In this document: positions 972 to 62,593 of the stretch, in pieces
Numbering within the stretch: the first letter of the stretch is position 1
Layout: each line of letters begins with the position of its first letter
From: Eledone cirrhosa
Taxonomy: Eukaryota
Reading direction: 5' to 3'
Assembly: GCA_964016885.1 (NCBI GenBank)
Contig: OZ024744.1
Location: 84,506,001-84,570,000, forward strand
DNA: 64,000 nucleotides
Translations under genes and position numbers: made by a program
The notes under the pieces: model-generated
Database searches by the model: none
Told to the model about the DNA's origin: nothing
Seen by the model: the letters and a program-made list of their open reading frames with translations, nothing else

Positions 972-2061
972 ACACATACACTTAGACATACACATACATA
1001 CATATCCACATTTCCGATATAAACACACATAATACACATACATACACTATAAACCTACAACGCCCAATAACCACACATACACGTTTACACTGATCTACAC
1101 ACACACACACACACACATACATGCTATGACTGATACACACAAACCCACATGAACATACTCTAAACACCACATATACCATTAACACAAACACACACACAAA
1201 CACACACACACACGTCTAACTCACGCATATATACACACACACACATAACAATTCTTTCGACACTCGCTCATAGACAGGCGCACACCTCGAGTAGACGTGG
1301 TTCCCCTTACTCACCGTACTCACACACCTGCATTACTGATAGTCCAGGAAATTCTCTGCCATTACAACTATATGCACACCCTCATACAGAAAAACATACA
1401 TCCCTACTTTCCTTTGCACATCACTCCCTCCTGATGATCCCCTATTTTTTTCATAACCTCTTCTCTCTCCTAACTTCTCCTCCACTTTCATTTTGCAAAC
1501 CGAAATAACCCGGAATGCATACCCGACTCTGCAAGAACATCGCCTGAGCCGGGACAGGATGACCCGGATTCCACTGACTTTCGGTCAAATGCATTACACC
1601 TATAGGACAATATACCTCAATATATTGCACGTTTATTTCATACATCTGTATATACGTATGTGTATATATAGATATATTATATATATGTGTGTGTGTGTAG
1701 ATATATGTGTGTGTTTATATGTATGTGTATGGTTATATTGTTTATATATGTGCATGCTTATAACAAGATGCATCATTTCATGTATGACCCATTCTATGAC
1801 CCATTGTGTATCTTTATATGACTTTGTGTATATATCCTATTTGTGTATATATATATATATATATATATGTAGATAAATCTACCAAGAGTTTACGGTAGTG
1901 TCCAATCCGTATGAAGAACTCAATGTATTCCGGATATCATGGAAAGAAGAGATGTAATGAAAATCCACTTTCGGTGAAAGATAAACGGTATACAGAGTCA
2001 AGATAAAATATTAAACAAATAATGAACAAACAATTCCTTATATTAAACAAAAAAAGTTCAC

Positions 2062-2206
2062 TATTTAACGATCGTTTCTAGGGTATATATGTGTTATAAT
2101 TGGTATGCATATTTAACAGATCTATGTACAAAATTATACAAAATTATACAAATTATCAAGATTAAATATACATACCTAACTCATATATACGCCGTCTTCA
2201 GAAATA
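2062..2206 (-). ncRNA. Type I hammerhead ribozyme motif with ~115-nt stem II (PLE1 3' end)
   Basis: Minus strand tattt-CTGAAGA-[gtatatatg/catatatac; ggtatgtatatttaa/ttaaatatgcatacc]-GAAAC-gatc-GTT-aaata; stem III palindrome AACGATCGTT. Confidence 0.75.
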
Positions 2207-2981
2207 ATGAAGTATATTTATTGATAATAACAACAATTCAAAATATCAGTTCAAAATTGACCAATGAAAACACAAAGGGTTAAAAGCAGTTTGGTGTGTG
2301 TATATACATGTAAAAAGCCTTACACATATTTTACAATAATGTGTGTATAATTTGTATGTGCATACTAAAAAGATGGATGCAAACACAAAATTTCAAGGTT
2401 AATATCTCTGTAAGCTTAATGCGCTGATAAGATACGCAATGATACTTATGGAGTCAAGCATATAAATATATTTTTTTCATACTCACACATATCAGTATAA
2501 TCACACATACATGTGCGTATATGCATAAATATACACATAACCACGAACATACAAACACACACACTCCCCCACTCACATTTATATATGTGGATATAAAATC
2601 ATAAGCAAATAGAAATTAAGTCACTCACATAAAACACTGGCACACACATTTCAAGATCAAGATACAGAAATTAGGTGGGAGGGGGGGGGGGAGGGGTCAG
2701 TATTAGATTGTCAGACCAGACTGCCTAATATAAATGTATCTATAAATTAAGAAAAATAAAAAAATAAAAACAATAAAATATAATAAATATAATATAATGT
2801 ACATACACATACAGATATACATACACATACATACATGTACGCGCACATAGAGATATCTACACATACATACATACACACATACCTATACAGTCATACACAC
2901 ACATACATTTACACGAACATACACATACACATATAAAAAGATATAAATACACACACACACACGCGCAACACATACCCACAT

Positions 2982-3032
<51 letters not shown>

Positions 3033-3177
3033 TAGACTCATATATATATATATACATATACATATATATATATATAAACATATATATCCACACACTCATA
3101 CCACCATAAATACACATACAAACACCCACATGTATATATATATATATATATATATATCCACATACACACACGTACAC

Positions 3178-3208
<31 letters not shown>

Positions 3209-3247
3209 CATATATATATATACACACACACATAAAAAACAGACATG

Positions 3248-3278
<31 letters not shown>

Positions 3279-3521
3279 TTCATTACTCTTATATATACAC
3301 ATAGTATATATACATACACAACCTCACTTATACACATATACACATAAGTTATATTACAATAATAATAAAGAATAATATATATATATATTTATATATACAT
3401 ATACATATATACATATATATATATATATACATACATACATACACATACATACATACACACAAATATATACATACATAAATACACGCATACGAATAAAGAC
3501 ATATATTCACACATAGACACC

Positions 3522-3553
<32 letters not shown>

Positions 3554-3555
3554 TC

Positions 3556-3605
<50 letters not shown>

Positions 3606-5345
3606 CACACACACACACACATACAGACACACATACACACTCACATATATATATATATATATGTGTATGTGAGTGTGCGCAAATACACATATATATACAC
3701 ACACATATACAAACACACACAAACACATACATATGCATACGTGCACACACACACACATATATCACATAGATACGAAGATAAACATATAAATAGAGAGACA
3801 TACAAATATATACAGAACCCATATACACATACATACAAACACGCATATACATATACATACATATATACACATATATATATTCCTATATACAAGCATACAC
3901 ATACATACACATATATACATATACATACACATATACATACCACACATTCACATACACATACATATATAATACATATATATACATATATATACATACATAT
4001 GTATGTACAATCATATATACACACTCAATCTTACATTCATATTTACATGCTCATATATGTATTTTTATATTTAGAAATAAATACCAAAACCTATATAGAC
4101 ACCCACCTACACATATATTCATACATATACGCTTACAAAAACAGATGATAATAGTATGGGGGAAAGGGGGGGGTTGGAGAAGGGGATCAAAGTAAATATA
4201 TGTTTCAAGAAACATATAATATTTTCCGTATCTTAATTCAATGTATGTTCTTACATATTTTCAGTGCTAGGAAATACGAAATCTATGCATCTCAAAATAA
4301 AAAAGTATACCATTAATCATATGTTAACTAAACCAAAGATAGTCAACATATTGATTTCCAAGGTGTAAATTAGTTAGGTTTATAATATTTGAAGCAGAAT
4401 TATGAAGTCAAACAGTAGTAGATTATTAATTACATTATAACTAAATTAAATTTAATAACGTTATGGTATCAATATTAGGAGATGAATTTAGTAATAGGGA
4501 AAAGAAACCCAAATAAAAATAAAATAAAGTATTACATCGGTAGTAGCATATAAATTATATGTTAACTAAATTAAAAATTATATATTTATTTCAATAGTAT
4601 ATGTTAATTAGTATATGTTAATTAGGTATACAATACATAAAGCAGATATTGTATTTCATCAATAGCATAATATAATTATATGCAAATAAAAATCAAAATT
4701 AATACGCATACATATACATATACATACACATACACATATATATACACATATACACACATATATATATATATATATACATATATATACACATATATACATA
4801 TATACTCACATAAACATACATACAGATACACATACACAACACACACATATACATATACATATAGATATACATATCTTTTTCAAAAAATTGCACAGAATAT
4901 ATTAACTAGGTATATATCCAAAACACTTCCCATTCTATGATTACATGACATTCTGCAATTCGTCTGTACAAGGATACTAATTTTAAGCAAATTAAAATTA
5001 AAGTTTTAGGTTGATTAAAACTAAAACCAAATAATAAATATATTTCCAAAATGTATATTAATTAGGTCTATAATACTAAAAATTCTTTCTCCGTCATTGG
5101 ATACATGATATTATTTTGTTATATTTTATCTGTAAAAGAATTATAATAAAAAAAATTATAATAAAAGGTTAAAATAAATTAAAATTAATCTATAAATTAA
5201 ATTACTGAGTATATATTAGTAATATTTAAAGGTTTTTCAAAATTTATGATTACATAATATTTTCTCATCTGTAATAAAATATTAATTAAATTAAATTTAT
5301 AGGTTAACTAACATTTAAATTAAATTAAATTCTAGAATAATGTTA

Positions 5346-7787
5346 TTAATTAGGTTTATAATATTTAAATGTTTTTTTTAATTTATGATTACACGATATA
5401 ATTAATTCCTGTCTTTTATTTAATAAGATATCCCTAGACCTCATTATTTCAAATAGTTCTTGGGAACATAATCTACATTCCTTTCTATTATTTTGATAAG
5501 GGGTGGCTCTTTTGAGCACACTCCAGGTCAAATCATATTTTATATTTTTATTTTTATAACTATTGATTTTTTCTGCTAGAGATGTTGTATTAGCCAGTGC
5601 GGCATTTTTAAAGCTATGTTTGTGGGTATTATACCTTGTCTTAAAATTGTTAGAGGTAGCTCCTATATATGAGCAAATAGAATCTTTAGTTTTAACATTA
5701 CATTTATAGACTATGTTGTTAACAAGACAATTCCCTTTTAATGGGCAGTTTGTTTTGTTTCTACAGTTACATCCTTTCGTTAATTCTGTATTTGAGGAGA
5801 TATTATTGTTAATTTGATGTACTGGTGGTATACTTATGGTTTTCTTACATTTATATGCATTATATGCACTTATATTTTGTTTTATGTTATTTGTTGTAGA
5901 GTATGAGAATTTAACTGTAGACCTATTTAAGATTTGATGGTATTTGTGGTTTGGCGGGAAGTTTTTCTCAAGGATATAAAAAAATTTTTTAGCAATATTA
6001 TCCTTAACTTGTAAATTAAAAGGAGCATTATACCAAGTAACTCGTCTATTACGGTTTCTATGTTGTTTATTATTTTTATTATTTTTATATGTTGTATCAT
6101 GATTTTTACTAGGAGGATTAATGTTAATGATCTCACCACAACTATTTTTAGTTATATTTGTAGATTTAGGTGTTTTATCTTTTTTATTAGGAGTTTTATT
6201 ATTAATATTTATTATAGTTGTATGATGAGTAGTTTTTTGAGGGTTACTATACTTTATATTAGAAGATTTAGTATTTTGGGGTATACTGTGGGTGGCATTT
6301 AGGTGTGTACTTTTCATTTGGTGTTTGTTGGTAATATTATGCTGTATGCTTTCAGTATTTTTAGTAGAAGGTATATACTCTAATCTATTTTTGTGGCCAC
6401 TTCTATCTAGAGCTTCATTATAAAAGGTCGCATTTTTATCAAATACATCTTGGTTAGAAGAAAGGTTAGAAATTCTAAGTGATATATTATATGTAAGGTT
6501 TTTAAGGATAGATTTAGGGTGATTAGATTGTGAGTGTATGTAATGTAAGTTTTGGTTAGGTTTATGGTAAGGTTGGTATATACCCGTAGCTAAATCTAAA
6601 GTTATATCTAGGAAATTTACTACTTTACTTGTTTTTTCAAAAGTAATATTAAGATTATAATAGTCTTTAAGGAAAGTTCTAATATGCTTTTTGTTTTTTT
6701 CGATTTCTGAAAGGCTAAGGTTGTTAGAAAGAAGAAGACAGTCATCACGATATAAACCACCTTTGAGGTGGGGAAAAGAGGCATTTATGTTGAAAAGGAG
6801 AAAGAGGCCCACAAGATCAGTAATTTGGGCGGAATCGCTTGAACCCATAGTAATATCAAAAAGATTACTGTATGTGTTTCTGGTCCAGTATTCATTCTGA
6901 AATTCAATAAGTGTTTGTCTAGCATGTGTAATAATGTTAATGTCATCCGAAGTTAAATTAGATCTATTTTTAGCAAATATTAATGCTTTGTTCAGGAGTA
7001 TGGGTGATATAGAAGAATAGTAATTATCTATATCAAATTGTAGGAAAGAAGCAGAAGATTTACACCTAATATTTTTAAACCAATTAATTACCTGGGAGGT
7101 GTTTTCCCAGAGTGGTAAAATAACGTATTTTCTTATTTGTGGGATGACTCTATCTAAAATTTTTTTGCTAATTATTCCAATATCTGATTTGGAGGGACAT
7201 ATAAGTCTAATAGAAGGATTAGAGTTAAAGTTAGATTTGTGATCTTTCAGGTTGAAGTGTGGTCTTTTCAATGCCAAAGGTTCAGTTCTATCTTCAATAT
7301 TTAGTTTTTTTACTATGTTGTGTGTTTTGTTGTTGATGTTGGTGAGTGACACATTATTAGATTTTTTATAATTTTTTCTGAGTTCTTTATATATGAACTC
7401 ATTATAATGTTCAATATCCATATGATACAAGTTACCAGTTTTGTCCGAGTGGACATGGATTTTTTTAGACTTTTTTAGGTCAAATAGGGTAGAATCAAGG
7501 TCCTTTTGAAAGACGGATTTATACTTTTTAAATTTGAGGTGTTTAATTAAATTAAAAAGGTCTTTCTCGAAGTCTTCAAGTAAAAAGTTGTGTGGTGGAT
7601 TCTTGTAAGTGTTGAAATCATACATATATTTCCGATCTGCTTGTTTAGATTTCCTATCGAAGTGGTAGGCTCTCCATCTAACCCTTCTGATAAAATTATT
7701 AGTTTTCTGAATCATAAGGAGTAAGAAGTCGTCCTTAGAAGGTATTGGTATGTTTTTTAAGGAGGTTCCTAAATATTGTTTTTCCAT
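5346..7787 (-). CDS. Intact PLE polyprotein, 813 aa: reverse transcriptase + C-terminal GIY-YIG endonuclease (Hydra-clade-like)
   Basis: ATG at 7787 (track start at 7808 is TTG). SLKNIPIP N-terminus, SDKTG, FDIDNYYSSI, ITMGS, YRDD, FLDITL, WYNAP, CNCRNKTNCPLKGNC, IVY..YIG..FKTRY..H, CRLC, LNKRQE..CNH; no stops. Confidence 0.93.
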   Translation of the reverse strand: MEKQYLGTSLKNIPIPSKDDFLLLMIQKTNNFIRRVRWRAYHFDRKSKQADRKYMYDFNTYKNPPHNFLLEDFEKDLFNLIKHLKFKKYKSVFQKDLDSTLFDLKKSKKIHVHSDKTGNLYHMDIEHYNEFIYKELRKNYKKSNNVSLTNINNKTHNIVKKLNIEDRTEPLALKRPHFNLKDHKSNFNSNPSIRLICPSKSDIGIISKKILDRVIPQIRKYVILPLWENTSQVINWFKNIRCKSSASFLQFDIDNYYSSISPILLNKALIFAKNRSNLTSDDINIITHARQTLIEFQNEYWTRNTYSNLFDITMGSSDSAQITDLVGLFLLFNINASFPHLKGGLYRDDCLLLSNNLSLSEIEKNKKHIRTFLKDYYNLNITFEKTSKVVNFLDITLDLATGIYQPYHKPNQNLHYIHSQSNHPKSILKNLTYNISLRISNLSSNQDVFDKNATFYNEALDRSGHKNRLEYIPSTKNTESIQHNITNKHQMKSTHLNATHSIPQNTKSSNIKYSNPQKTTHHTTIININNKTPNKKDKTPKSTNITKNSCGEIININPPSKNHDTTYKNNKNNKQHRNRNRRVTWYNAPFNLQVKDNIAKKFFYILEKNFPPNHKYHQILNRSTVKFSYSTTNNIKQNISAYNAYKCKKTISIPPVHQINNNISSNTELTKGCNCRNKTNCPLKGNCLVNNIVYKCNVKTKDSICSYIGATSNNFKTRYNTHKHSFKNAALANTTSLAEKINSYKNKNIKYDLTWSVLKRATPYQNNRKECRLCSQELFEIMRSRDILLNKRQELIISCNHKLKKTFKYYKPN

Positions 7788-8135
7788 TGTGATATGGATG
7801 ATGGACAATTGAAAGAGCTCAACTAAATGTATATGGGTTTACAAAATCATACATATATATATGTTTATACATAAATATAAAATTAATACACACATACAGT
7901 ACAAAAATACGAATATTTCCGTGAAAATAGGAGCAAAATTATGTAGATAAATCTACCAAGAGTTTACGGTAGTGTCCAATCCGTATGAAGAACTCAATGT
8001 ATTCCGGATATCATGGAAAGAAGAGATGTAATGAAAATCCACTTTCGGTGAAAGATAAACGGTATACAGAGTCAAGATAAAATATTAAACAAATAATGAA
8101 CAAACAATTCCTTATATTAAACAAAAAAAGTTCAC

Positions 8136-8280
8136 TATTTAACGATCGTTTCTAGGGTATATATGTGTTATAATTGGTATGCATATTTAACAGATCTATG
8201 TACAAAATTATACAAAATTATACAAATTATCAAGATTAAATATACATACCTAACTCATATATACGCCGTCTTCAGAAATA
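8136..8280 (-). ncRNA. Hammerhead motif, second tandem copy (PLE1)
   Basis: Same sequence as 2062-2206, 6074 bp away; about 350 nt upstream of the ATG of the intact ORF. Confidence 0.75.
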
Positions 8281-9052
8281 ATGAAGTATATTTATTGATA
8301 ATAACAACAATTCAAAATATCAGTTCAAAATTGACCAATGAAAACACAAAGGGTTAAAAGCAGTTTGGTGTGTGTATATACATGTAAAAAGCCTTACACA
8401 TATTTTACAATAATGTGTGTATAATTTGTATGTGCATACTAAAAAGATGGATGCAAACACAAAATTTCAAGGTTAATATCTCTGTAAGCTTAATGCGCTG
8501 ATAAGATACGCAATGATACTTATGGAGTCAAGCATATAAATATATTTTTTTCATACTCACACATATCAGTATAATCACACATACATGTGCGTATATGCAT
8601 AAATATACACATAACCACGAACATACAAACACACACACTCCCCCACTCACATTTATATATGTGGATATAAAATCATAAGCAAATAGAAATTAAGTCACTC
8701 ACATAAAACACTGGCACACACATTTCAAGATCAAGATACAGAAATTAGGTGGGAGGGGGGGGAGGGGTCAGTATTAGATTGTCAGACCAGACTGCCTAAT
8801 ATAAATGTATCTATAAATTAAGAAAAATAAAAAAATAAAAACAATAAAATATAATAAATATAATATAATGTACATACACATACAGATATACATACACATA
8901 CATACATGTACGCGCACATAGAGATATCTACACATACATACATACACACATACCTATACAGTCATACACACACATACATTTACACGAACATACACATACA
9001 CATATAAAAAGATATAAATACACACACACACACGCGCAACACATACCCACAT

Positions 9053-9103
<51 letters not shown>

Positions 9104-9248
9104 TAGACTCATATATATATATATACATATACATATATATATATATAAACATATATATCCACACACTCATACCACCATAAATACACATACAAACACCCAC
9201 ATGTATATATATATATATATATATATATCCACATACACACACGTACAC

Positions 9249-9279
<31 letters not shown>

Positions 9280-9318
9280 CATATATATATATACACACAC
9301 ACATAAAAAACAGACATG

Positions 9319-9349
<31 letters not shown>

Positions 9350-9592
9350 TTCATTACTCTTATATATACACATAGTATATATACATACACAACCTCACTT
9401 ATACACATATACACATAAGTTATATTACAATAATAATAAAGAATAATATATATATATATTTATATATACATATACATATATACATATATATATATATATA
9501 CATACATACATACACATACATACATACACACAAATATATACATACATAAATACACGCATACGAATAAAGACATATATTCACACATAGACACC

Positions 9593-9624
<32 letters not shown>

Positions 9625-9626
9625 TC

Positions 9627-9676
<50 letters not shown>

Positions 9677-11416
9677 CACACACACACACACATACAGACA
9701 CACATACACACTCACATATATATATATATATATGTGTATGTGAGTGTGCGCAAATACACATATATATACACACACATATACAAACACACACAAACACATA
9801 CATATGCATACGTGCACACACACACACATATATCACATAGATACGAAGATAAACATATAAATAGAGAGACATACAAATATATACAGAACCCATATACACA
9901 TACATACAAACACGCATATACATATACATACATATATACACATATATATATTCCTATATACAAGCATACACATACATACACATATATACATATACATACA
10001 CATATACATACCACACATTCACATACACATACATATATAATACATATATATACATATATATACATACATATGTATGTACAATCATATATACACACTCAAT
10101 CTTACATTCATATTTACATGCTCATATATGTATTTTTATATTTAGAAATAAATACCAAAACCTATATAGACACCCACCTACACATATATTCATACATATA
10201 CGCTTACAAAAACAGATGATAATAGTATGGGGGAAAGGGGGGGTTTGGAGAAGGGGATCAAAGTAAATATATGTTTCAAGAAACATATAATATTTTCCGT
10301 ATCTTAATTCAATGTATGTTCTTACATATTTTCAGTGCTAGGAAATACGAAATCTATGCATCTCAAAATAAAAAAGTATACCATTAATCATATGTTAACT
10401 AAACCAAAGATAGTCAACATATTGATTTCCAAGGTGTAAATTAGTTAGGTTTATAATATTTGAAGCAGAATTATGAAGTCAAACAGTAGTAGATTATTAA
10501 TTACATTATAACTAAATTAAATTTAATAACGTTATGGTATCAATATTAGGAGATGAATTTAGTAATAGGGAAAAGAAACCCAAATAAAAATAAAATAAAG
10601 TATTACATCGGTAGTAGCATATAAATTATATGTTAACTAAATTAAAAATTATATATTTATTTCAATAGTATATGTTAATTAGTATATGTTAATTAGGTAT
10701 ACAATACATAAAGCAGATATTGTATTTCATCAATAGCATAATATAATTATATGCAAATAAAAATCAAAATTAATACGCATACATATACATATACATACAC
10801 ATACACATATATATACACATATACACACATATATATATATATATATACATATATATACACATATATACATATATACTCACATAAACATACATACAGATAC
10901 ACATACACAACACACACATATACATATACATATAGATATACATATCTTTTTCAAAAAATTGCACAGAATATATTAACTAGGTATATATCCAAAACACTTC
11001 CCATTCTATGATTACATGACATTCTGCAATTCGTCTGTACAAGGATACTAATTTTAAGCAAATTAAAATTAAAGTTTTAGGTTGATTAAAACTAAAACCA
11101 AATAATAAATATATTTCCAAAATGTATATTAATTAGGTCTATAATACTAAAAATTCTTTCTCCGTCATTGGATACATGATATTATTTTGTTATATTTTAT
11201 CTGTAAAAGAATTATAATAAAAAAAATTATAATAAAAGGTTAAAATAAATTAAAATTAATCTATAAATTAAATTACTGAGTATATATTAGTAATATTTAA
11301 AGGTTTTTCAAAATTTATGATTACATAATATTTTCTCATCTGTAATAAAATATTAATTAAATTAAATTTATAGGTTAACTAACATTTAAATTAAATTAAA
11401 TTCTAGAATAATGTTA

Positions 11417-13474
11417 TTAATTAGGTTTATAATATTTAAATGTTTTTTTTAATTTATGATTACACGATATAATTAATTCCTGTCTTTTATTTAATAAGAT
11501 ATCCCTAGACCTCATTATTTCAAATAGTTCTTGGGAACATAATCTACATTCCTTTCTATTATTTTGATAAGGGGTGGCTCTTTTGAGCACACTCCAGGTC
11601 AAATCATATTTTATATTTTTATTTTTATAACTATTGATTTTTTCTGCTAGAGATGTTGTATTAGCCAGTGCGGCATTTTTAAAGCTATGTTTGTGGGTAT
11701 TATACCTTGTCTTAAAATTGTTAGAGGTAGCTCCTATATATGAGCAAATAGAATCTTTAGTTTTAACATTACATTTATAGACTATGTTGTTAACAAGACA
11801 ATTCCCTTTTAATGGGCAGTTTGTTTTGTTTCTACAGTTACATCCTTTCGTTAATTCTGTATTTGAGGAGATATTATTGTTAATTTGATGTACTGGTGGT
11901 ATACTTATGGTTTTCTTACATTTATATGCATTATATGCACTTATATTTTGTTTTATGTTATTTGTTGTAGAGTATGAGAATTTAACTGTAGACCTATTTA
12001 AGATTTGATGGTATTTGTGGTTTGGCGGGAAGTTTTTCTCAAGGATATAAAAAAATTTTTTAGCAATATTATCCTTAACTTGTAAATTAAAAGGAGCATT
12101 ATACCAAGTAACTCGTCTATTACGGTTTCTATGTTGTTTATTATTTTTATTATTTTTATATGTTGTATCATGATTTTTACTAGGAGGATTAATGTTAATG
12201 ATCTCACCACAACTATTTTTAGTTATATTTGTAGATTTAGGTGTTTTATCTTTTTTATTAGGAGTTTTATTATTAATATTTATTATAGTTGTATGATGAG
12301 TAGTTTTTTGAGGGTTACTATACTTTATATTAGAAGATTTAGTATTTTGGGGTATACTGTGGGTGGCATTTAGGTGTGTACTTTTCATTTGGTGTTTGTT
12401 GGTAATATTATGCTGTATGCTTTCAGTATTTTTAGTAGAAGGTATATACTCTAATCTATTTTTGTGGCCACTTCTATCTAGAGCTTCATTATAAAAGGTC
12501 GCATTTTTATCAAATACATCTTGGTTAGAAGAAAGGTTAGAAATTCTAAGTGATATATTATATGTAAGGTTTTTAAGGATAGATTTAGGGTGATTAGATT
12601 GTGAGTGTATGTAATGTAAGTTTTGGTTAGGTTTATGGTAAGGTTGGTATATACCCGTAGCTAAATCTAAAGTTATATCTAGGAAATTTACTACTTTACT
12701 TGTTTTTTCAAAAGTAATATTAAGATTATAATAGTCTTTAAGGAAAGTTCTAATATGCTTTTTGTTTTTTTCGATTTCTGAAAGGCTAAGGTTGTTAGAA
12801 AGAAGAAGACAGTCATCACGATATAAACCACCTTTGAGGTGGGGAAAAGAGGCATTTATGTTGAAAAGGAGAAAGAGGCCCACAAGATCAGTAATTTGGG
12901 CGGAATCGCTTGAACCCATAGTAATATCAAAAAGATTACTGTATGTGTTTCTGGTCCAGTATTCATTCTGAAATTCAATAAGTGTTTGTCTAGCATGTGT
13001 AATAATGTTAATGTCATCCGAAGTTAAATTAGATCTATTTTTAGCAAATATTAATGCTTTGTTCAGGAGTATGGGTGATATAGAAGAATAGTAATTATCT
13101 ATATCAAATTGTAGGAAAGAAGCAGAAGATTTACACCTAATATTTTTAAACCAATTAATTACCTGGGAGGTGTTTTCCCAGAGTGGTAAAATAACGTATT
13201 TTCTTATTTGTGGGATGACTCTATCTAAAAATTTTTTGCTAATTATTCCAATATCTGATTTGGAGGGACATATAAGTCTAATAGAAGGATTAGAGTTAAA
13301 GTTAGATTTGTGATCTTTCAGGTTGAAGTGTGGTCTTTTCAATGCCAAAGGTTCAGTTCTATCTTCAATATTTAGTTTTTTTACTATGTTGTGTGTTTTG
13401 TTGTTGATGTTGGTGAGTGACACATTATTAGATTTTTTATAATTTTTTCTGAGTTCTTTATATATGAACTCATT
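11417..13474 (-). pseudogene. 5'-truncated second copy of the PLE1 ORF (lacks the first ~128 aa)
   Basis: Same protein from NEFIYKEL onward, one I>F change (SKKILD/SKKFLD); truncated at the inversion junction. Confidence 0.92.
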
Positions 13475-13907
13475 GAATGTAAGATTGAGTGTGTATATAT
13501 GATTGTACATACATATGTATGTATATATATGTATATATATGTATTATATATGTATGTGTATGTGAATGTGTGGTATGTATATGTGTATGTATATGTATAT
13601 ATGTGTATGTATGTGTATGCTTGTATATAGGAATATATATATGTGTATATATGTATGTATATGTATATGCGTGTTTGTATGTATGTGTATATGGGTTCTG
13701 TATATATTTGTATGTCTCTCTATTTATATGTTTATCTTCGTATCTATGTGATATATGTGTGTGTGTGTGCACGTATGCATATGTATGTGTTTGTGTGTGT
13801 TTGTATATGTGTGTGTATATATATGTGTATTTGCGCACACTCACATACACATATATATATATATATATGTGAGTGTGTATGTGTGTCTGTATGTGTGTGT
13901 GTGTGTG

Positions 13908-13959
<52 letters not shown>

Positions 13960-13961
13960 GA

Positions 13962-13993
<32 letters not shown>

Positions 13994-14103
13994 GGTGTCT
14001 ATGTGTGAATATATGTCTTTATTCGTATGCGTGTATTTATGTATGTATATATTTGTGTGTATGTATGTATGTGTATGTATGTATGTATATATATATATAT
14101 ATG

Positions 14104-14136
<33 letters not shown>

Positions 14137-14474
14137 ATATTATTCTTTATTATTATTGTAATATAACTTATGTGTATATGTGTATAAGTGAGGTTGTGTA
14201 TGTATATATACTATGTGTATATATAAGAGTAATGAAATATATATATATATATATATATGTGCATGTCTGTTTTTTATGTGTGTGTGTATATATATATATG
14301 TATGTGTATATATATATATATATATATATGTGTACGTGTGTGTATGTGGATATATATATATATATATATATATACATGTGGGTGTTTGTATGTGTATTTA
14401 TGGTGGTATGAGTGTGTGGATATATATGTTTATATATATATATATGTATATGTATATATATATATATGAGTCTA

Positions 14475-14525
<51 letters not shown>

Positions 14526-15493
14526 ATGTGGGTATGTGTTGCGCGTGTGTGTGTGTGTATTTATATCTTTTTATATGTGTATGTGTATGTTCGTGTAAAT
14601 GTATGTGTGTGTATGACTGTATAGGTATGTGTGTATGTATGTATGTGTAGATATCTCTATGTGCGCGTACATGTATGTATGTGTATGTATATCTGTATGT
14701 GTATGTACATTATATTATATTTATTATATTTTATTGTTTTTATTTTTTTATTTTTCTTAATTTATAGATACATTTATATTAGGCAGTCTGGTCTGACAAT
14801 CTAATACTGACCCCTCCCCCCCCCTCCCACCTAATTTCTGTATCTTGATCTTGAAATGTGTGTGCCAGTGTTTTATGTGAGTGACTTAATTTCTATTTGC
14901 TTATGATTTTATATCCACATATATAAATGTGAGTGGGGGAGTGTGTGTGTTTGTATGTTCGTGGTTATGTGTATATTTATGCATATACGCACATGTATGT
15001 GTGATTATACTGATATGTGTGAGTATGAAAAAAATATATTTATATGCTTGACTCCATAAGTATCATTGCGTATCTTATCAGCGCATTAAGCTTACAGAGA
15101 TATTAACCTTGAAATTTTGTGTTTGCATCCATCTTTTTAGTATGCACATACAAATTATACACACATTATTGTAAAATATGTGTAAGGCTTTTTACATGTA
15201 TATACACACACCAAACTGCTTTTAACCCTTTGTGTTTTCATTGGTCAATTTTGAACTGATATTTTGAATTGTTGTTATTATCAATAAATATACTTCATTA
15301 TTTCTGAAGACGGCGTATATATGAGTTAGGTATGTATATTTAATCTTGATAATTTGTATAATTTTGTATAATTTTGTACATAGATCTGTTAAATATGCAT
15401 ACCAATTATAACACATATATACCCTAGAAACGATCGTTAAATAGTGAACTTTTTTTGTTTAATATAAGGAATTGTTTGTTCATTATTTGTTTA

Positions 15494-15502
<9 letters not shown>
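13474..15502 (+). repeat. Inverted pseudo-LTR arm of PLE1 (copy of 2003-4039)
   Basis: Reverse-complement match including unique segments; stops 137 bp short of the main 3' end. Confidence 0.93.
15299..15443 (+). ncRNA. Hammerhead motif in the inverted arm of PLE1
   Basis: tattt CTGAAGA(15304) ... GAAAC(15427) gatc GTT aaata. Confidence 0.75.
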
Positions 15503-17750: not shown

Positions 17751-17858
<108 letters not shown>

Positions 17859-18499
17859 ACTAACATAAGCGCACAGATGTACGCTAATGCCAGCAAATAC
17901 ACAGGTTATGTCATAGTACCTAGGTGGTTCAATGCAGGAGGATGCAGAACAATAATATAAAAGACGTAAAATAAGAAATTTTTTTTAAAAACTGTCTTTA
18001 TCCCATTGCAGAAACTAATTAGTTGGAGTGAAAATTTAAGTAAGTTAATTTTTTTTTTATTTTTTTTTTTTTTATTTTATTATTTTACGTCTTTTATATT
18101 ATTGTTCTGCATCCTCCTGCATTGAACCACCTAGGTACTATGACATAACCTGTGTATTTGCTGGCATTAGCGTACATCTGTGCGCTTATGTTAGTAGATA
18201 TATTAAATTATCTATATTTATCTCCAAATCACTGATTTGTCGAGCAAACCTGCCAAAACCACTTCTGAATTTTTTGGGGGGTGTTAGTAGGCGTCTGTCA
18301 TCTTACCATCCCATTCCTACTGACTAGCCTCTGTGTCACGTGATTGATTCTTTAGAATCGGCCATATGACCAGTGGCAGTGAGAATTTTCAGTACCTGGA
18401 ATCCAGTCCTCGATAGCTGTTCCATTTACCGAATTATTATTATTTTTATATGAGTCCCCAGTGTCCGCGCATTGCCTGGAGACTTGGCTGAGAATAGAC

Positions 18500-18579
18500 C
18501 TCCCTGATGATGCAATGAAATTCTCAACAGTTCATTACGTAACTGTCTTTATCCCATTGCAGAAACTAATTAGTTGGAG
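18500..18579 (+). ncRNA. Type I hammerhead ribozyme motif, unit 1
   Basis: ctcc-CTGATGA-tgcaatg...cattgca-GAAAC-taatta-GTT-ggag; palindromic stem III AACTAATTAGTT. Confidence 0.8.
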
Positions 18580-19047
18580 TGAAAATTTAAGTAAGTTAAT
18601 TTTTTTTTTATTTTTTTTTTTATTTTCTTATTTTACGTCTTTTATATTATTGTTCTGCATCCTCCTGCATTGAACCACCTAGGTACTATGACATAACCTG
18701 TGTATTTGCTGGCATTAGCGTACATCTGTGCGCTTATGTTAGTAGATATATTAAATTATCTATATTTATCTCCAAATCACTGATTTGTCGAGCAAACCTG
18801 CCAAAACCACTTCTAAATTTTTTGGGGGGTGTTAGTAGGCGTCTGTCATCTTACCATCCCATTCCTACTGACTAGCCTCTGTGTCACGTGATTGATTCTT
18901 TAGAATCGGCCATATGACCAGTGGCAGTGAGAATTTTCAGTACCTGGAATCCAGTCCTCGATAGCTGTTCCATTTACCGAATTATTATTATTTTTATATG
19001 AGTCCCCAGTGTCCGCGCATTGCCTGGAGACTTGGCTGAGAATAGAC

Positions 19048-19127
19048 CTCCCTGATGACGCAATGAAATTCTCAACAGTTCATTACGTAACTGTCTTTAT
19101 CCCATTGCAGAAACTAATTAGTTGGAG
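19048..19127 (+). ncRNA. Type I hammerhead ribozyme motif, unit 2
   Basis: As above; first stem II base T>C. Confidence 0.75.
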
Positions 19128-19600
19128 TGAAAATTTAAGTAAGTAAGTTAATTTTTTTTTTTTTTTTTTTTTAAATGTTCTTATTTTACGTCTTTTATAT
19201 TATTGTTCTGCATCCTCCTGCATTGAACCACCTAGGTACTATGACATAACCTGTGTATTTGCTGGCATTAGCGTACATCTGTGCGCTTATGTTAGTAGAT
19301 ATATTAAATTATCTATATTTATCTCCAAATCACTGATTTGTCGAGCAAACCTGCCAAAACCACTTCTAAATTTTTTGGGGGGTGTTAGTAGGCGTCTGTC
19401 ATCTTACCATCCCATTCCTACTGACTAGCCTCTGTGTCACGTGATTGATTCTTTAGAATCGGCCATATGACCAGTGGCAGTGAGAATTTTCAGTACCTGG
19501 AATCCAGTCCTCGATAGCTGTTCCATTTACCGAATTATTATTATTTTTATATGAGTCCCCAGTGTCCGCGCATTGCCTGGAGACTTGGCTGAGAATAGAC

Positions 19601-19680
19601 CTCCCTGATGACGCAATGAAATTCTCAACAGTTCATTACGTAACTGTCTTTATCCCATTGCAGAAACTAATTAGTTGGAG
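19601..19680 (+). ncRNA. Type I hammerhead ribozyme motif, unit 3
   Basis: As unit 2. Confidence 0.75.
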
Positions 19681-19730
19681 TGAAAATTTAAGTAAGTAAG
19701 TTAAATTTTTAAAAATGTTCTTATTTTACG

Positions 19731-19778
<48 letters not shown>

Positions 19779-19784
<6 letters not shown>

Positions 19785-20333
19785 AAATAAAATAAATAAG
19801 TCAAATGTTTAAAATTTGGCTTCGTTTATTACTGCTATATATATTTCGGTGACAGCCATTTTTGGCTGTGACCTCTTCAGGCAGTAAGAATTAGTGTGGT
19901 AGAGACGAGTACATATGTTGTTGAGGTATAACTTTGTCAATACTCTGATATGCGCAGTTCCTGGTTGGGTTGTTATTTCACTGAGGAACTGGAATCATAT
20001 GAATTTAAACATTCATATGATTCCAGTTCCTTAGTGAAATAACAACCCAACCAGGAACTGGGCATATCAGAGTATTGACAAAGTTATACCTCAACAACAT
20101 ATGTACTCGTCTCTACCACACTAATTTGGACTGCCTGAAGAGGTCACAGCCAAAGATGGCTGTCACCGATATATATATATAGCAGTAATAAACGAAGCCA
20201 AATTTTAAACATTTGACTTATTTATTTTATTTTATTTTACATTACTCCGGAGTAACCAAACCAACCTGCGCGCTTCGTCGAGTGCTCCAATCTGCATACT
20301 CAAGTGTTGGTATACAACCAACATATACTCAAA

Positions 20334-20338
<5 letters not shown>
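19779..20338. mobile_element. Asymmetric foldback insertion: arms 19779-20004 / 20011-20238 plus 100-bp tail, flanked by (TA)n
   Basis: ~226-bp inverted arms with 6-bp spacer; hammerhead in each arm (right copy 20130-20186 has GAAA>GATA). Confidence 0.9.
19829..19887 (-). ncRNA. Minimal type I hammerhead ribozyme motif
   Basis: ttactgc-CTGAAGA-ggtcacagcca aaaa tggctgtcacc-GAAA-tatat-ATA-gcagtaa. Confidence 0.88.
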
Positions 20339-20780: not shown

Positions 20781-20784
<4 letters not shown>

Positions 20785-20980
20785 CAAAGAAAGTGTGGTA
20801 AGGAGCCAGGTGGACCATAACGCACCAAAGTACACGATACTTAGCGTAGTAGAGTGGGTTATAGGAAAAGAGTCAGGACTCCGATGGCTGAGCTCCGGCC
20901 GTTTCGATAGCTAGATTCGAACAGTTCGGATCTAGCTGTCGAAATGGCCGGAACTCAGCCGTCGGGATCCTGACTCTTTT

Positions 20981-20986
<6 letters not shown>
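20781..20986. mobile_element. Mini foldback: 63-bp arms (20860-20922 / 20924-20986) plus ~80-bp tail; related to the PLE3 3' end
   Basis: Arms carry the hammerhead 3' half GAAA(c/t)-ggc..gcc-GTC-ggga; tail aligns with 59760-59846. Confidence 0.8.
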
Positions 20987-21509: not shown

Positions 21510-21780
21510 AGCAGAAAAAGGTAAAGGAAAGGAGAGTGCTCTATGTAGGCTACAGAGCTTTTTAGTTATGTAATAAACAACATAAGATAATTATTTCATT
21601 TACCAAAGGTTTCACGAAGACAGACGAGCTTGGCACAGATGTCTGCCTTCAATCAACAGAATGAATTTTATTTAAAATGGAAGTAAGATATGGTTTTCAA
21701 AACAGAGTCTAGGACAATTGAAAGCGAGGCTGAAATAAAATAACGGACATGATGTAAAGAGGAAAATAAAAAAGTATATG
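21510..21780 (-). mobile_element. Non-coding PLE-end arm with degenerate hammerhead (21595-21665, core CTGTTGA); inverted partner at 27095-27308
   Basis: High reverse-complement identity to 27095-27308; family member with canonical core at 39385-39600. Confidence 0.72.
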
Positions 21781-22022: not shown

Positions 22023-22710
22023 ATAAATGAGAGGTATAGAGATTGTTTTAGCGAGAAGCTAATAGTATTCTATAACATATATGTGACTATAACGTCAAGA
22101 TGGGAAAAGTAGTTAACGTAAGATTTAGGAAAAATAACTCAAACTCATCTCAAAAGAGAATCAGGATACAAATTCATCCACAGAATTTAGTGAAATCCAG
22201 GGAAAAATCAATAGACCCTTAACTCATGATAAAATAAAGTTTAAAACACTTATCCTTCAATTTGGAATAACATCAAATGATCTGTATAGTCTTAAAAGAC
22301 TATTTCATGAAAACTTTCAGTGGAGATGGTCACGGTTGGATTTCAATCGTCAGCAGAGCTCAACAGAAACCAGGGCTCTCACAGTATTATAATCCGAAAA
22401 AGGGAATTCTAAAACTGGCTAGTTCGCCAACATGTGTAGTTATGAAAAAGCACATGAGGAAAAACGGGGCTAGTGACGTCAGGATGAAAGTGAATGTTTA
22501 TTTACAAGAAATAGCAGTCAAATACATTCTGAAAAAAACTCTACAAAAGGAGTTCAGCAAATAGCAATAATTATCACAGTTTTTATTAAAAAAACCGGGA
22601 TTAGTCACAGATAGTTTAAGCACTCTAGGAAAAGAATCCGAGTATAAATATAAATGAGAGGTATAGAGATTGTTTTAGCGAGAAACTAATAGTATTCTAT
22701 AACATATATA
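22023..22710 (-). mobile_element. Retrozyme-like element: one 627-bp unit plus terminal redundancy
   Basis: ATAAATGAGAGGTATAGAGATTGTTTTAGCGAGAA at 22023 and 22650; contains a hammerhead. Confidence 0.75.
22279..22359 (-). ncRNA. Type I hammerhead ribozyme motif with stable stem III
   Basis: gctctg-CTGACGA-ttgaaa...tttcat-GAAA-tagtctt tt aagact-ATA-cagatc (cagagc in the 20409 copy). Confidence 0.8.
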
Positions 22711-29733: not shown

Positions 29734-29796
<63 letters not shown>

Positions 29797-30433
29797 ACAA
29801 TAATAAATTTGAAGACGACTAAAATCGAAAGAGGGCTCGATAAGGATAAATATATATAAGAACCGTAGAGCAAATATTTATTAAAATAACGGATTAAAGT
29901 TTAAGCAAATAATCGCTGCTTTCACCACCCTTAACGGGATCTTCTGAAACTAAAAAAGTTCATCTGTGAACGCAGAAGTAAATATTTCAAAAAAAGTTGC
30001 AACCAAAGGAAGACAGGAAGACGATACTTTGGTTCGTGGAAACGTTCTTGGCAAAGAACGGAAAAAAACGAAGATAATACGTCATTATTTGGTGCAGTGA
30101 AAACAATTACACGCAAAGACAAAACCACATTTATGGTATAAATGAAGTCGTAGACTAATATTCCATTTAGGAAACCGAATGATTCTCGGCTTCAGAGTTA
30201 AGAATAAAGTAAATAAAATACAGAGGTAATTGAAATTAAATATATACATACACACATCCATATACGTACATACACAAGCATACGCGAAACCACTCCCCGT
30301 GGGTATGCAAATACAAGCACGTGCACAAAACAAAAACACACAGACACACACGCACAAGCAGAACCCACGCAACGCCTGAACCGCACACATACGAACGTAT
30401 ACACCAAATACACATAAAAACATATATATATAC

Positions 30434-30487
<54 letters not shown>

Positions 30488-30830
30488 ATAATTAAATAAA
30501 CGTATATAAATATACACATAATTACGTATACAACGCGCGCACACACACCCACATGTAAAGACACATATGTTCGCGGACGTACGTCAACCAAAACACAAAG
30601 TACACATATACACACACCCTACATACGTACGAACCCGCATACTCACACGGACGTAAAACACCCGTATACACATAACCAAATGCACATGTACCGGTATATA
30701 TAATATATACGCCAATAACATATACAAGCAAATATACGTACGAGAAAATATACGTAACTTCACAAAGCATACAGGTAATATATACTTACTTATACGAATA
30801 AGTAATGGTATTAACATAACATATACTTAG

Positions 30831-32983
30831 CTACAACATCAAGACGTAAAATATCCGCGTATAGTTCGTACTATCCGTTAGGGTATACAGGAAAGTTGTG
30901 TGCAATTTATGTTTACAAGCCGAAATTGCCTCAAATTTGTTTGTTTAAGATGTGGTCTTTGGGGTAGAGTATTTCCAGGGCCTCAGCGGCGCAGCGGTCA
31001 CGTGGTCTTTTATTTCCGTTATACGATCTAGCCTCAACTAGGATCTCCCAGTGTAACTTATATTGGGTGTGGGTGTCTTTTAGGCTCCAGATATAAGCTG
31101 AAAGTGACGTCATATTCCTTCTTAAAGGGTTAAGAAAAGAATGGGTATGCATGTAAAGACGCTGCTTGAATCTATTGGCGGTTAACCCTATGTAGGCCCT
31201 ATGGGACGTGGGTGTTTCAACCTTACATTTGTAGACAATGTTACTAGAGAGGCATTTCCCGGATAGGGGGCAGTCAACCCGATTCCTACAATTACAGTTA
31301 GGGCTAGCTACAGGGTTGCACGTGTTCCTACGGCAAAGGTAATTTAGCTAAATTTGAAGCTGTGATATCATGTGCAAAGTTAGGAATCGTAGAGTAAGAA
31401 ATTTTAATGGTATTTCTATTAAAAATGTTACTATATTTATGTGCTGGAGGGAAATGCTTCATAAGGGAGAGAAAGATCTTAGCTAAAGATGTGGCCACCT
31501 CCATATTATATGGTGGGTTATACCAAATAATGCGTCGGGATCTATTTTTCCTAGGTCTATTCTCGTACGCTGTATAAGCTACCTTATCGACAAATCCACT
31601 CCGAGCAAGAGCTTCATTGTAATATGTGGAATGGTCGTTGAAAATATGCTCGTTTGTAGATAGACGGGAAAGCCTCAAAGAAACGTTTCTCACCAGGTTC
31701 TTGGTTATGCTGGCAGGATGGTTAGAATGTTTACTTATGTAATTAAGCGTATCATTCGGCTTTCTATACGGGTAGTGCAAGCCATTCGACAAATCGAGGG
31801 TAACGTCGAGGTAATTAACGACCGAGAGGTTGGCCTCAACCTCTATGGAGAGGTTGAAGCCTTTAAAGAAGGCTGTGAGTTCTTTTCTGAACCTGTCGCA
31901 AGCACGTGGGCCGCACTTTGTCATGGTCAAAAGACCGTCATCACGGTACAAACCACCGCCCACGTTGAAGAATTGTTCCTTGATAGAGAAAAGAAGGAAA
32001 AGGCCGATAAGATCAGTAACCTCCGCAGAATCGCTGGCGCCCATACTCACGCCGAATGGGGTACTATTAGATTTTTTAATCCAAATAGAGTCGTCGAAAT
32101 TAATCACCGACTTACGAGCATTGAGGATGACATCAACTTCGAAATCCTTAACCACTGTGAGTGTTTTGGCGAAATTGATAGCTCTAAGGAGAAGTGGTAG
32201 AGTGATGGAGGAGTAATAATTATTGATGTCGAATTGGATAAAACGGCAATGTTCCTTGTTACATATGCCGTTGAACCAATCAATCACCACGAAAGAATTG
32301 TTCCACAGTGCAAGATGGGCCAAACTACTAATTTCAGGTATAATCCTATCTAAAATCCTTTTACTAACTCTACCTAAATCGGACTTCGTAGGATTAATAA
32401 GCCGAATAGAGGGGTTGTTCGGGAAATTGGATTTGTGATCCTTCAGGGTAAAGTGGGGAGAAATAGGGTCCAGAGGTTCGGTCCGGTCCAGGATGTTGAG
32501 ATCAGAGGTGATATTAAACCCAGCATCGTTGATTTCATTAATGACGCTCCGATTAGTTTTACGGTAATCCTTAGTTACAGCATTATGTAACAGTTGATCG
32601 TAAGTACTGCGCTCCACTTGATATAGATTGCCAGTTTTATCGGAATGGACGTGCACGGCATTAGAATCCTTAATAGAACGAATTCTATTCTTCAGGTCCT
32701 GCTGGAAGAAATGGCTCCTATTCCGAAATTTGATACTCCGTATGAGTTCCAAGACATCATTTTCGAATGGTAGCAATGCTGGGTTACTCGGAGGGTTATT
32801 ATAGGTTTTAAACCCAAATTTATCCTGTTTGTTTTCTGCTTTTCGCTGATTATCGAAATAAAAGGCACGCCACCGCAACTTTTTAATGAACGCGTCTGTT
32901 TTCTGTATCAAGAGTTTTAGGTATGTTTTCCTGCTTGGTACGGGTATGTTCTTTGTAGAAATATTCAGATGTTGTTTCTGCAT
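30831..32983 (-). pseudogene. PLE RT + GIY-YIG ORF; RT part open for 551 aa, frameshifts near 31330 and 30935
   Basis: STKNIPVP, SDKTG, FDINNYYSSI, YRDD, WYNPP; after the shift CNCRNRVDCPLSGKC, IVY..YIG, LNK..ISACKHK. Confidence 0.9.
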
Positions 32984-33267
32984 GATGAATATAAGTCAAT
33001 AGAGTGCTCCACTTCCGTTCATTGCCAGAAAACGTCTCCATGAACCACCTAATAGAATATTAGTCCACGACTTCATTTATACCATAAATGTGGTTTTGTC
33101 TTCGCGTGTAATTGTTTTCACTGCACCAAATAATGACGTATTATCTTCGTTTTTTTTTCGTTCTTTGCCAGGAACGTTTCCACGAACCAAAGTATCGTCT
33201 TCCTGTCTTCCTTCGGTTGCAACGTTCTTTGAAATATTTACTTCTGCGTTCACAGATTAACTTTTTT

Positions 33268-33318
33268 AGTTTCAGAAGATCCCGTTAAGGGTGAAAGCAG
33301 CGATTATTTGCTTAAACT
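33268..33318 (+). ncRNA. Hammerhead-like motif with CAGAAGA core (U4A); other copies 29898-29951 (-) and 33413-33463 (-)
   Basis: agttt-CAGAAGA-tccc gttaa gggt-GAAA-gca gcgattatt tgc-TT-aaact. Confidence 0.6.
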
Positions 33319-33338
33319 TTAATCTGTTATTTTAATAA

Positions 33339-33401
<63 letters not shown>

Positions 33402-37643: not shown

Positions 37644-39045
37644 CTAAGTAATAGGTTTATAGTGGTAGAAGGAATTAAGTTTCATGTGAATACAAGAAGA
37701 GAAAATCTCCGATTTCCTATTTAGTAAGTCATAGTTAGAGTAAACTATATGGCGTGAGACTCAAGCAGGCAAAGGTTACAAGTTTTGCTCGGCGGGGCGG
37801 TAGGGTGGAGATTTAGTCACCAACCTCCAATTGAGTGTATAATCTATACCATCATATTTTAAAGAATGGATATATTTAGCTAGGGAGGTAGCATTTTTAA
37901 GCCTATTATATCTAAAAGTATAATTGTGGGAGTTGAATCTAGTTTTAAAAGCTGTCTTAGTAGAGGTTGTTGTTACAACATCACACGCATAAACAATATT
38001 CTTCGTGAGGCAATTGCCTTTTAAAGGGCAATTTCCACTCCTTCTACAATTACAATTACGGTTTGTGTCGTTATTCATACCTTGGGATGGCCTATTGTTA
38101 AAACCCACTTGACCTGGAATGTGTTCATTCGATGTGTTGTTAGCGAGCTGCGGTGCCACACTAGCCAATGTGTTAGGTTGTTGTTGGTTATTCACAGATT
38201 TAATATCTTCAAAACCTACACTAATTTTCTGATTATTAGTACGTGCCAGGTGGTAAGCTAGATTCGGTGTAGTGGAGTACGATAATTTAATTGTGTTTTA
38301 TTTAATATACTATGGTATCTGTTGCCCGGCGGGAAGTTCTTTTCTGGGATTAAGAAGAATGTTTTGGGAATGTTAGTTAAGACCTCAGAGTTATATGGTG
38401 GGTTAGAAAAGGTGTTCATTCTTCTTCTATTTTTTCTATTTTCCCCCACTTCAGTCCGGTTACCACCAGAACTACTACTCTCTCCTTCGCCTACGGAACC
38501 AAGTCCACTATATACTGGTCGTGAAACTCTCACATTATATTGGTCAATACGCCCACCTGATACTCTACCATGAGTATAGTTTCCAAATCTCGACACACTT
38601 CCATTAGTGTAACCAGTAGGAGTATTTGGAGGATGTATATTATGGCCATTCAGTCTGGGCCGGGCTGAACCAATCCCTATATGGGTCCTATCTAGAGTTC
38701 TATAACTGTTAGCATTATAATTATAATTCAAAGACATATTGTGCGTAATAACATTATTATGCCCAGCTATGGTGGATTGGGAGCTAGTAGGTACGAAATA
38801 TAGTTTATTCTTATAGCCAGAGTTAGCTAGTGCCTCGTTATAATAATCCACATTAGAATTGAAAATATCTTCTCCGCATGATAAACGGCTGATCCTATTA
38901 GATACCCCCTTAGTAATAGCATTCAGTACTGATTTAGGGTGGTTGGATCCAGCATGTACATAAGTTAGTTTCTCATTAGGTGTGAAAGTCTTATTTTCTA
39001 GATCTAGTGTTGCATCCAAGAAATTTACTGTTTTATTATTCTTTA
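37644..39045 (-). pseudogene. PLE4: 5'-truncated, frameshifted PLE ORF (RT thumb, G/S/N/R-rich insert, GIY-YIG)
   Basis: VNFLDATLDL, SNHPKSVL, SNPPYN, CNCRRSGNCPLKGNC, FKTRFNSH, LLNRKSEIFSSCIH. Confidence 0.88.
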
Positions 39046-39196
39046 TAACAGCTCTGTTCATGTACATTGAGCTAACACAATACTGCCATAATACAGTACG
39101 GTGATTGTGTGTTTATGCACATACGCTCTGTACTTTACGTAAATAACTATTTATATATATATATATACATGTATGTATGTGTGTATGTATATACAT

Positions 39197-40649: not shown

Positions 40650-40679
<30 letters not shown>

Positions 40680-40680
<1 letters not shown>

Positions 40681-41053: not shown

Positions 41054-41124
41054 TTATATATAACTTTGATAACTTTGATAACTTTGATAGGTTCCGGCCA
41101 GTATATACATATATATATATATAC

Positions 41125-55090: not shown

Positions 55091-55092
<2 letters not shown>

Positions 55093-55534: not shown

Positions 55535-55572
<38 letters not shown>

Positions 55573-62004: not shown

Positions 62005-62593
<589 letters not shown>

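Follow-up and report, generated by a model that had tools for sequence, protein, structure and literature searches.

Hairpins beside two copy start sites as a candidate dual-priming signal in foldback Penelope-like elements of Eledone cirrhosa

An inverted, 5'-truncated copy and a one-sided tail of 30-40 bp have been described as standard for Penelope-like elements (PLEs), and the origin of their inverted repeats and tails has been named an open question (PMC8557442). Members of the Hydra clade, of the C-terminal EN+ type, have an RT domain followed by a GIY-YIG endonuclease, a DKT motif, a CxCX5C linker, a canonical hammerhead ribozyme and a (TA)n target, and are generally shorter than 3 kb; the octopus family Hydra-1_Obim is listed among them (PMC8557442). 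For PAc, a Poseidon element of Anolis carolinensis, both target strands have been reported to be nicked and extended in vitro, with two internal RT start sites bounding the tail, and the steps after initiation were left unvalidated (PMC11167929). Non-LTR retrozymes are non-coding, consist of tandem units with a type I hammerhead, and derive from PLE pLTRs (PMC7229834; bioRxiv 10.64898/2026.07.22.740005).

The window referred to below is the whole stretch of 64,000 nucleotides of Eledone cirrhosa DNA analysed here (contig OZ024744.1, positions 84,506,001 to 84,570,000), and coordinates are those of the window.

Foldback elements and ribozymes in the window

All ten foldbacks listed in an earlier note were recovered by self-BLAST, microsatellite-border scanning and alignment of ends (Table 1). 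The self-BLAST was run after masking of simple repeats, without which microsatellite matches dominate, and the scan covered 122 borders, an inverted partner within 15 kb turning up for shuffled 16-mers in 11 of 1000 trials. In every one of the ten, one arm ends short and the other has a tail of 66-136 bp, the 3' ends facing outward; the ends lie in (TA)n-type repeats, and two long ends adjoin (CA)n/(TG)n. The measured arm/tail lengths are 2029/136 (PLE1), 294/82 (PLE2) and 959/81 (PLE3) for the large elements, and 226/96 (19779), 63/78 (20781), 127/83 (40676), 176/90 (55091), 18/66 (62068) and 133/107 (62594) for the small ones. The lengths given earlier were within a few bases of these values, except that the element at 17857 had been mis-described as 135/105: its tail measures 100 bp, its tail arm overlaps upstream of the short end by about 35 bp, and its other arm is a 1.75-kb tandem. 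The inverted arms overlap in all ten (18-2029 bp), which bears out the distinction from L1 twin priming that the earlier note had drawn. Divergence between arms ranges from 0.2 to 11% with a transition bias.

Related inserts lacking an inverted partner are numerous in the window, so that the foldback is a frequent but not universal arrangement among them. Three foldbacks were found in addition to those listed earlier (39198-39373, 50191-50458 and 50575-51681), with extensions of 36, 33 and 46 bp. A decayed fourth PLE has a long, degenerate (CACCA)-type pentamer satellite at its 3' end (35700-37580); the short end in (TA)n predicted for this PLE near 37600 was not found there.

Table 1. Positions of the foldbacks, their parts and related features in the window.
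Feature	Position	Strand	Remarks
Focal foldback, short-site arm	19779..20004	-	226 bp, 3' end against (TA)n
Focal foldback, type I hammerhead ribozyme	19836..19880	-	core to cut site, palindromic stem III
Focal foldback, head-to-head junction	20005..20010	.	6 nt
Focal foldback, long-site arm, part common with short arm	20011..20242	+	
Focal foldback, tail	20243..20338	+	96 bp, ends in (TA)n
Focal foldback, HP1	20244..20283	+	4-bp base stem, 2-nt bulge, 6-bp inner stem including two G-U pairs
PLE1	1867..15502	.	1.9 tandem units of 6071 bp on -; inverted 2029-bp arm 13474-15502; tail 1867-2002
PLE1 RNA signals	HP1 1998-1918; HP2 7935-7818		
PLE1 ORF	5346-7787	-	813 aa, RT/GIY-YIG
Retrozyme-like tandem foldback	17855..19740	.	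~550-bp units, each with ribozyme and HP1; ends at short site; 135-bp tail arm on -
20781 foldback	20782..20986	.	63-bp arms, 1-nt junction, tail left; PLE3 relative (82%)
PLE2	29793..33341	.	ORF 31328-32983 (-); inverted arm 33048-33341; tail 29793-29874
40676 foldback	40677..41058	.	127-bp arms, ribozyme in both, tail left, 26-bp duplication at junction
55091 foldback	55091..55536	.	176-bp arms, 4-nt junction, tail right
PLE3	56635..59848	.	5'-truncated broken ORF on +, inverted 959-bp arm, tail right
62068 foldback	62068..62209	.	58-bp short-site arm with ribozyme 3' half; tail arm overlaps 18 bp
62594 foldback	62594..63163	.	short-site arm 330 bp, ~200 bp further 5' than tail arm; ribozyme stem II spans unique part
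Probable tail-only arm	39041..39150	+	abuts decayed fourth PLE (-) head to head without overlap; HP1 39051-39072; tentative
HP1, non-foldback family	21538..21558	-	copies 27308, 39383 end 4 nt before HP1
HP1, partial tandem	22622..22643	-	copies 22031, 20686 end 4 nt before HP1

Judged on sequence, the foldbacks are assigned to Hydra-clade PLEs and their non-coding derivatives. The 813-aa PLE1 product aligned end to end with homologues and has its YIG core near the C end, as predicted for an RT with a C-terminal GIY-YIG. Both PLE1 and PLE2 have SDKTG (DKT in place of DKG), and RWR replaces RWK, as in two of the four homologues shown; the CxCX5C linker is present in PLE1, as are CxxC and CxH around the conserved E and N, and two cysteines within its core, checked for a CCHH motif, are not kept in the homologues. 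The match to the published Hydra-clade alignment was judged by eye, and a Pfam search returned no family for any of the eight window proteins. With a unit of 6071 bp in PLE1 and more than 3.2 kb in PLE2, these elements lie outside the Hydra-clade range of less than 3 kb, which is a tendency and not diagnostic.

A structure scan found 15 type I hammerheads at a score of at least 13 in the window, compared with none in each of five shuffles. Since the hammerheads fix the sense of the RNA, the 3' end of every foldback arm can be seen to face outward towards the flank, as expected if a target 3'-OH primes the cDNA. A ribozyme was located in seven of the ten foldbacks (only its 3' half in 62068), the one in the long-site arm of the focal foldback (20135-20181) having one core change; by the same scan none was found in PLE2, PLE3 or 20781. 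Rfam gave no hammerhead among the 150 of 183 matches listed, where only sub-threshold matches of miRNA-type hairpins appeared. Of the 14 arms in the seven elements whose cut could be located, none begins there, in agreement with the in vitro finding that ribozyme cleavage is dispensable (PMC11167929). A candidate start at the cut in the arm at 17990 was rejected, as a scan allowing long stem II loops placed it within loop II. The tandem non-coding units at 17990-19740, with three full type I hammerheads at a spacing of about 550 bp, fit a candidate non-LTR retrozyme. A GC-rich degenerate satellite at 24578-26547 contains several CTGATGA cores, among which the scan found no complete hammerhead.

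Some other features of the window were also recorded. A DNA-transposon-like element (52545-54198), which may be Chapaev-like, has CAC...GTG terminal inverted repeats and a 334-aa ORF (52895-53899, +) without a Pfam match, and it sits between two ribozyme-bearing inverted arms (52303-52485 and 54330-54562). A perfect 395-bp direct duplication (28746-29140 and 29334-29728) lies between (TA)n tracts, and a fragment at 44370-44900 (-), with no Pfam match, resembles by eye a LINE AP-endonuclease.

Fixed 3' ends and the adjoining hairpins

The earlier note proposed that cDNA is primed from either strand of the target, at two fixed positions downstream of the ribozyme, with head-to-head joining of the two products, and this proposal gains support from ends common to relatives and from the two start sites published for the Anolis element. 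PLE3 and 20781, which are 82% alike, have both ends in common, and 33981 and 41128 have the same long end. Six solo copies (33395, 62578, 22031, 20686, 27308 and 39383) stop at the short end of their own family and have no tail arm, the reference being 22648 for 22031 and 20686, and 21563 for 27308 and 39383. The short site lies 38-92 nt past the ribozyme cut in ten measured cases. Two ribozyme-bearing solo inserts of 205 bp (16284-16490 and 49291-49498), which are 85% alike and lie between (TA)n tracts, have the same 5' and 3' ends, suggesting an RNA with a defined 5' end. Three pairs of ends did not fit: 28148 with 41311, 52303 with 54496, and 17486 with 61860, where 17486 ends 4 nt inside the stem.

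Tail-to-tail palindromes with (TA)n at their centre were observed at 33341/33395, 62578/62594 and 40627/41060, in the manner of repeated short-end insertion of the same family into one tract. Reiterated tiny copies of 8-26 bp are also found beside ends or junctions (49520, 40640, 40900-40950 and 51150-51180), and resemble abortive or telomerase-style repeated priming.

A bulged stem-loop, HP1, begins about 4 nt downstream of the short end; it consists of a four-pair base stem (RYTC/GARY), a bulge of 1-2 nt whose first base is U, an inner stem and a loop that varies. This motif was drawn by eye from the ten listed elements, and pairing is itself a selection criterion of the script, which makes the in-sample figures circular in part: HP1 was found within -2 to +8 nt of the short end in all ten, at offsets of 4, 4, 1, 4, 3, -1, 4, 5, 4 and 4 after the last base common with the short arm, a score matched by 4% of 3000 random positions, and its first three inner pairs were paired in 97% compared with 54% for shuffled partners. 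The base stem covaries, its first two pairs changing jointly on both sides (A-U/G-C and C-G/U-A). A TA or AT step occupies positions -6/-5 relative to the stem in 11 of 12 cases, and would pair with a (TA)n primer. Loose matches to HP1 are common (29 in the window, with a mean of 14.4 in 20 shuffles), and the evidence is therefore the position of the hairpin rather than its presence. Tail length follows hairpin length (r=0.82), with 42-72 nt left after HP1. The full hairpin appears in the MFE folds of only about half of the tails; in that of the focal element the inner stem is present and the base stem pairs elsewhere. The 5' strands of the hairpins did not align under MAFFT.

Once the motif had been fixed, HP1 was found at +4 in both further window families (21558 and 22643), and at +6 and +5 in the two small foldbacks of the same build in L001, one of three contigs (L001-L003) of eukaryote-like DNA from a single metagenome-assembled record, an unrelated assembly. 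Several Hydra-type PLEs and (TA)n tracts occur in this record, whose title is that of a bacterial MAG, and most likely they represent eukaryotic contamination. HP1 was also recognized by eye in the consensus sequences Hydra-2_Amil, Hydra-2_Ajap and, with one mismatch, Hydra-1_Crog (coral, sea cucumber and copepod; Craig 2021 File S7), which are all three of the six Hydra consensi there that run past the ribozyme, the other three stopping about 35-47 nt after the cut. None of the three additional window foldbacks has it (no match in 39198 and 50574, and a background-level match in 50190); these may belong to other PLE clades, and 39198 may be symmetric.

A similar hairpin, HP2, follows the long end by 4-5 nt in three of five testable cases, at +4 in L002, at +5 for the L001 end set against L003 and at +5 in PLE1, each shortly 5' of a start codon or ORF. 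The other two are misfits, with +8 for the end at 2337 in L003 and an imperfect hairpin at +21 for 17857. In PLE1 HP2 spans 118 nt and is not shown by the folding run, and in the Hydra-1_Ajap consensus two hairpins lie 61 nt apart (by eye; Craig 2021 File S7). As HP2 lies outside the inserted DNA, it could act only on the RNA. An AT-rich stretch of the PLE1 5' UTR (7818-7935) has GT...AG ends within the HP2 loop and could be an intron. A remnant of the PLE2 5' UTR (33001-33047) is complementary to a pLTR motif (33160-33195), and the RNA could pair across the two start sites.

Origin of the two arms

It is highly probable that the two arms arise by dual priming at sites set by the hairpins. In the scheme proposed, Hydra-clade RNAs would carry two like hairpins, HP1 and HP2, with a spacing of about 60-140 nt, downstream of the hammerhead and immediately upstream of the next unit's start codon. 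The RT/GIY-YIG protein would bind both hairpins as a dimer and cut (TA)n DNA, and each target 3' end would pair with a UA/AU step located some 4 nt upstream of one of the hairpins, priming cDNA at that point. The products would be one short arm and one arm longer by the tail (4 nt, HP1 and 42-72 nt), and the two cDNAs would be joined head to head. PLE RTs are not known to have RNase H, and strand displacement by them could allow one RNA to be recopied; usually, one RNA would be copied twice, the trailing RT displacing the leading cDNA and leaving an overlap from zero to complete. This reading, with both arms mostly from one RNA, is given a probability of about 0.6. Its extension to at least four animal phyla, in which each subunit of an RT-endonuclease dimer would load on one of the paired hairpins and start copying 4-5 nt upstream of it, one RNA yielding both cDNAs by strand displacement, is more tentative and falls a little short of even odds.

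Some of these features might be expected if one cDNA or antisense RNA primed itself by folding back and an endonuclease resolved the hairpin at staggered sites to leave the tail (PMC3846280; PMC8557442), as has been proposed in print for Adineta elements, and the near-palindromic junctions in 19779, 20781 and 55091 agree with this. Such a copied arm cannot exceed its template, and the fixed polarity cannot give both directions of arm length that are seen: the tail arm reaches further 5' in PLE1, PLE2 and PLE3, and the short arm in 17857, 62068 and 62594, which rules out simple foldback copying and calls for two primings. In 62594 the ribozyme stem II spans the unique 200 bp, which must therefore be native, and this element contradicts self-priming as a general model, though it could still hold for the symmetric subset. 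The six solo copies ending at the short site without a tail arm, the location of HP2 beyond the insert and the 1-nt loop of 20781, too tight for snap-back, also count against it, and self-priming is considered improbable. Still less credit is given to the small foldbacks being MITEs of DNA transposons or artefacts of chimeric-read assembly, to which their palindromic form, short length and TA context, and the lack of a hairpin or ribozyme in 39198, could point; 39198 may itself be a MITE or a short+short product. Terminal inverted repeats, which the earlier note had named as a sign against its proposal, are absent from all ten listed foldbacks, 39198 being set apart, and the termini are offset by the tail in each. 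Ribozymes and HP1 are common to foldbacks and RT-coding elements, 20781 shares both its ends with PLE3, the arms differ by up to 11% with a transition bias, and the same layout recurs in the unrelated assembly (L001).

A closer question is whether, under hairpin-set priming, each arm might have its own template, in the form of two RNAs, the two pLTRs of a tandem RNA, or a circular RNA. Tandem arrays do exist (PLE1, 17857 and 22031-22709), and the inverted arm of PLE1 differs from both tandem units at four sites where the units agree, which suggests another template, three of the four being microsatellite lengths. The main element of L001 has the short end at both sides; together with PLE1 it argues for the additional use of a second template or unit. 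The long cDNAs of PLE2 and L001 stop close to the upstream pLTR, as if the upstream site were occupied, and a full-length element in L002 (3886-3948), adjoining (TA)n and without an inverted arm, has its 5' end at the base of the upstream HP1, as expected if the upstream unit primes; a tandem RNA with two pLTRs covers these cases without a second molecule or circle. Against separate templates, if two RNAs chose their sites freely, about half of the products should be symmetric, whereas a short end is paired with a long one in 12 of 13 Hydra-type foldbacks (10/10 in the window and 2/3 in L001). Three of 13 window junctions deviate from symmetry by no more than 6 nt; if the stops were independent, P would be 0.036 to 6e-5 with the mean cDNA length set at 100-1000 nt. 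Separate templates would need a common 5' stop to produce such junctions; the L001A junction lies within 7 nt of symmetry, at a point that a relative in L003 reads through. A defined RNA 5' end, as at 16284 and 49291, could yield symmetric junctions from two RNAs. That none of the 14 arms starts at the ribozyme cut counts against separate templates. The near-symmetric junctions and the short and long pairing favour one RNA common to both arms, and separate templates are regarded as rather unlikely, without being negligible. The overlaps themselves are graded, from possibly 0 (39041, tentative) through 18, 35 and 133 bp to complete. The contention of the earlier note that overlapping arms need a second or circular template was too strict, because a partial-tandem RNA already has two pLTRs and one RNA recopied by displacement of the first cDNA fits most cases.

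The foldback layout, the two start sites and the extension of both strands have already been published, dual priming being in print for another clade (PMC11167929). The paired hairpin signal and the one-RNA model appear to be new; in the text of the open-licence papers searched, which include few of the older Penelope papers, neither the hairpins nor the spacing was found described. A rule of structure and spacing is a testable answer to how these elements choose where copying starts and turns that question into simple mutational tests, for which PLE1, with an open 813-aa ORF and its own RNA signals, could be used. Curators could set the true ends of Hydra families and recognize small MITE-like palindromes as retroelement products. 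If true, one rule would explain the tail, the inverted pLTR and the palindromic junction, would provide a portable start signal by which RNA could be written into the two ends of a (TA)n break, and would bear on how the sister group of telomerase places its template through RNA structure.

Comparison with known systems

L1 twin priming likewise starts cDNA from each strand of the target and ends in a head-to-head junction, the second site being opportunistic and the arms without overlap. In the window foldbacks, by contrast, both sites are proposed to be fixed by RNA structure and the arms overlap by 18-2029 bp, with 39041 as a possible zero-overlap case resembling L1 twin priming. RNA structures also assign RT subunits to target strands in the two-subunit model of R2, and the epsilon structure of hepadnaviruses sets the priming site; the window elements differ from both in having two like hairpins in tandem, 3' of internal DNA-primed start sites.

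Partial tandems, an inverted 5'-truncated copy and a one-sided tail are shared with Hydra-clade PLEs as described, from which the window elements differ in tails of 64-136 bp instead of 30-40 bp, in the 6-kb unit of PLE1 and in the miniature non-coding foldbacks (PMC8557442); no mention of tail hairpins was found in the available text of that source (PMC8557442). The tandem at 17990-19740 fits the non-LTR retrozymes, and in the passages covered the two accounts of these say nothing of inverted arms, tails or start sites (PMC7229834; bioRxiv 10.64898/2026.07.22.740005). The start sites of PAc differ in lying inside the ORF, in an AC-rich stem-loop, and in showing no strand preference in vitro (PMC11167929); this lack of a strand difference in the choice of start site counts against the scheme proposed for the window elements. 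By eye, the PAc RNA shown there lacks the RYTC/GARY stem, and inverted products and a spacing rule are not addressed in the available portion of that study (PMC11167929). PAc nevertheless resembles the window elements in its AT-rich target, in the dispensability of ribozyme cleavage, in a predicted dimer and in a copy start located in a stem-loop (PMC11167929).
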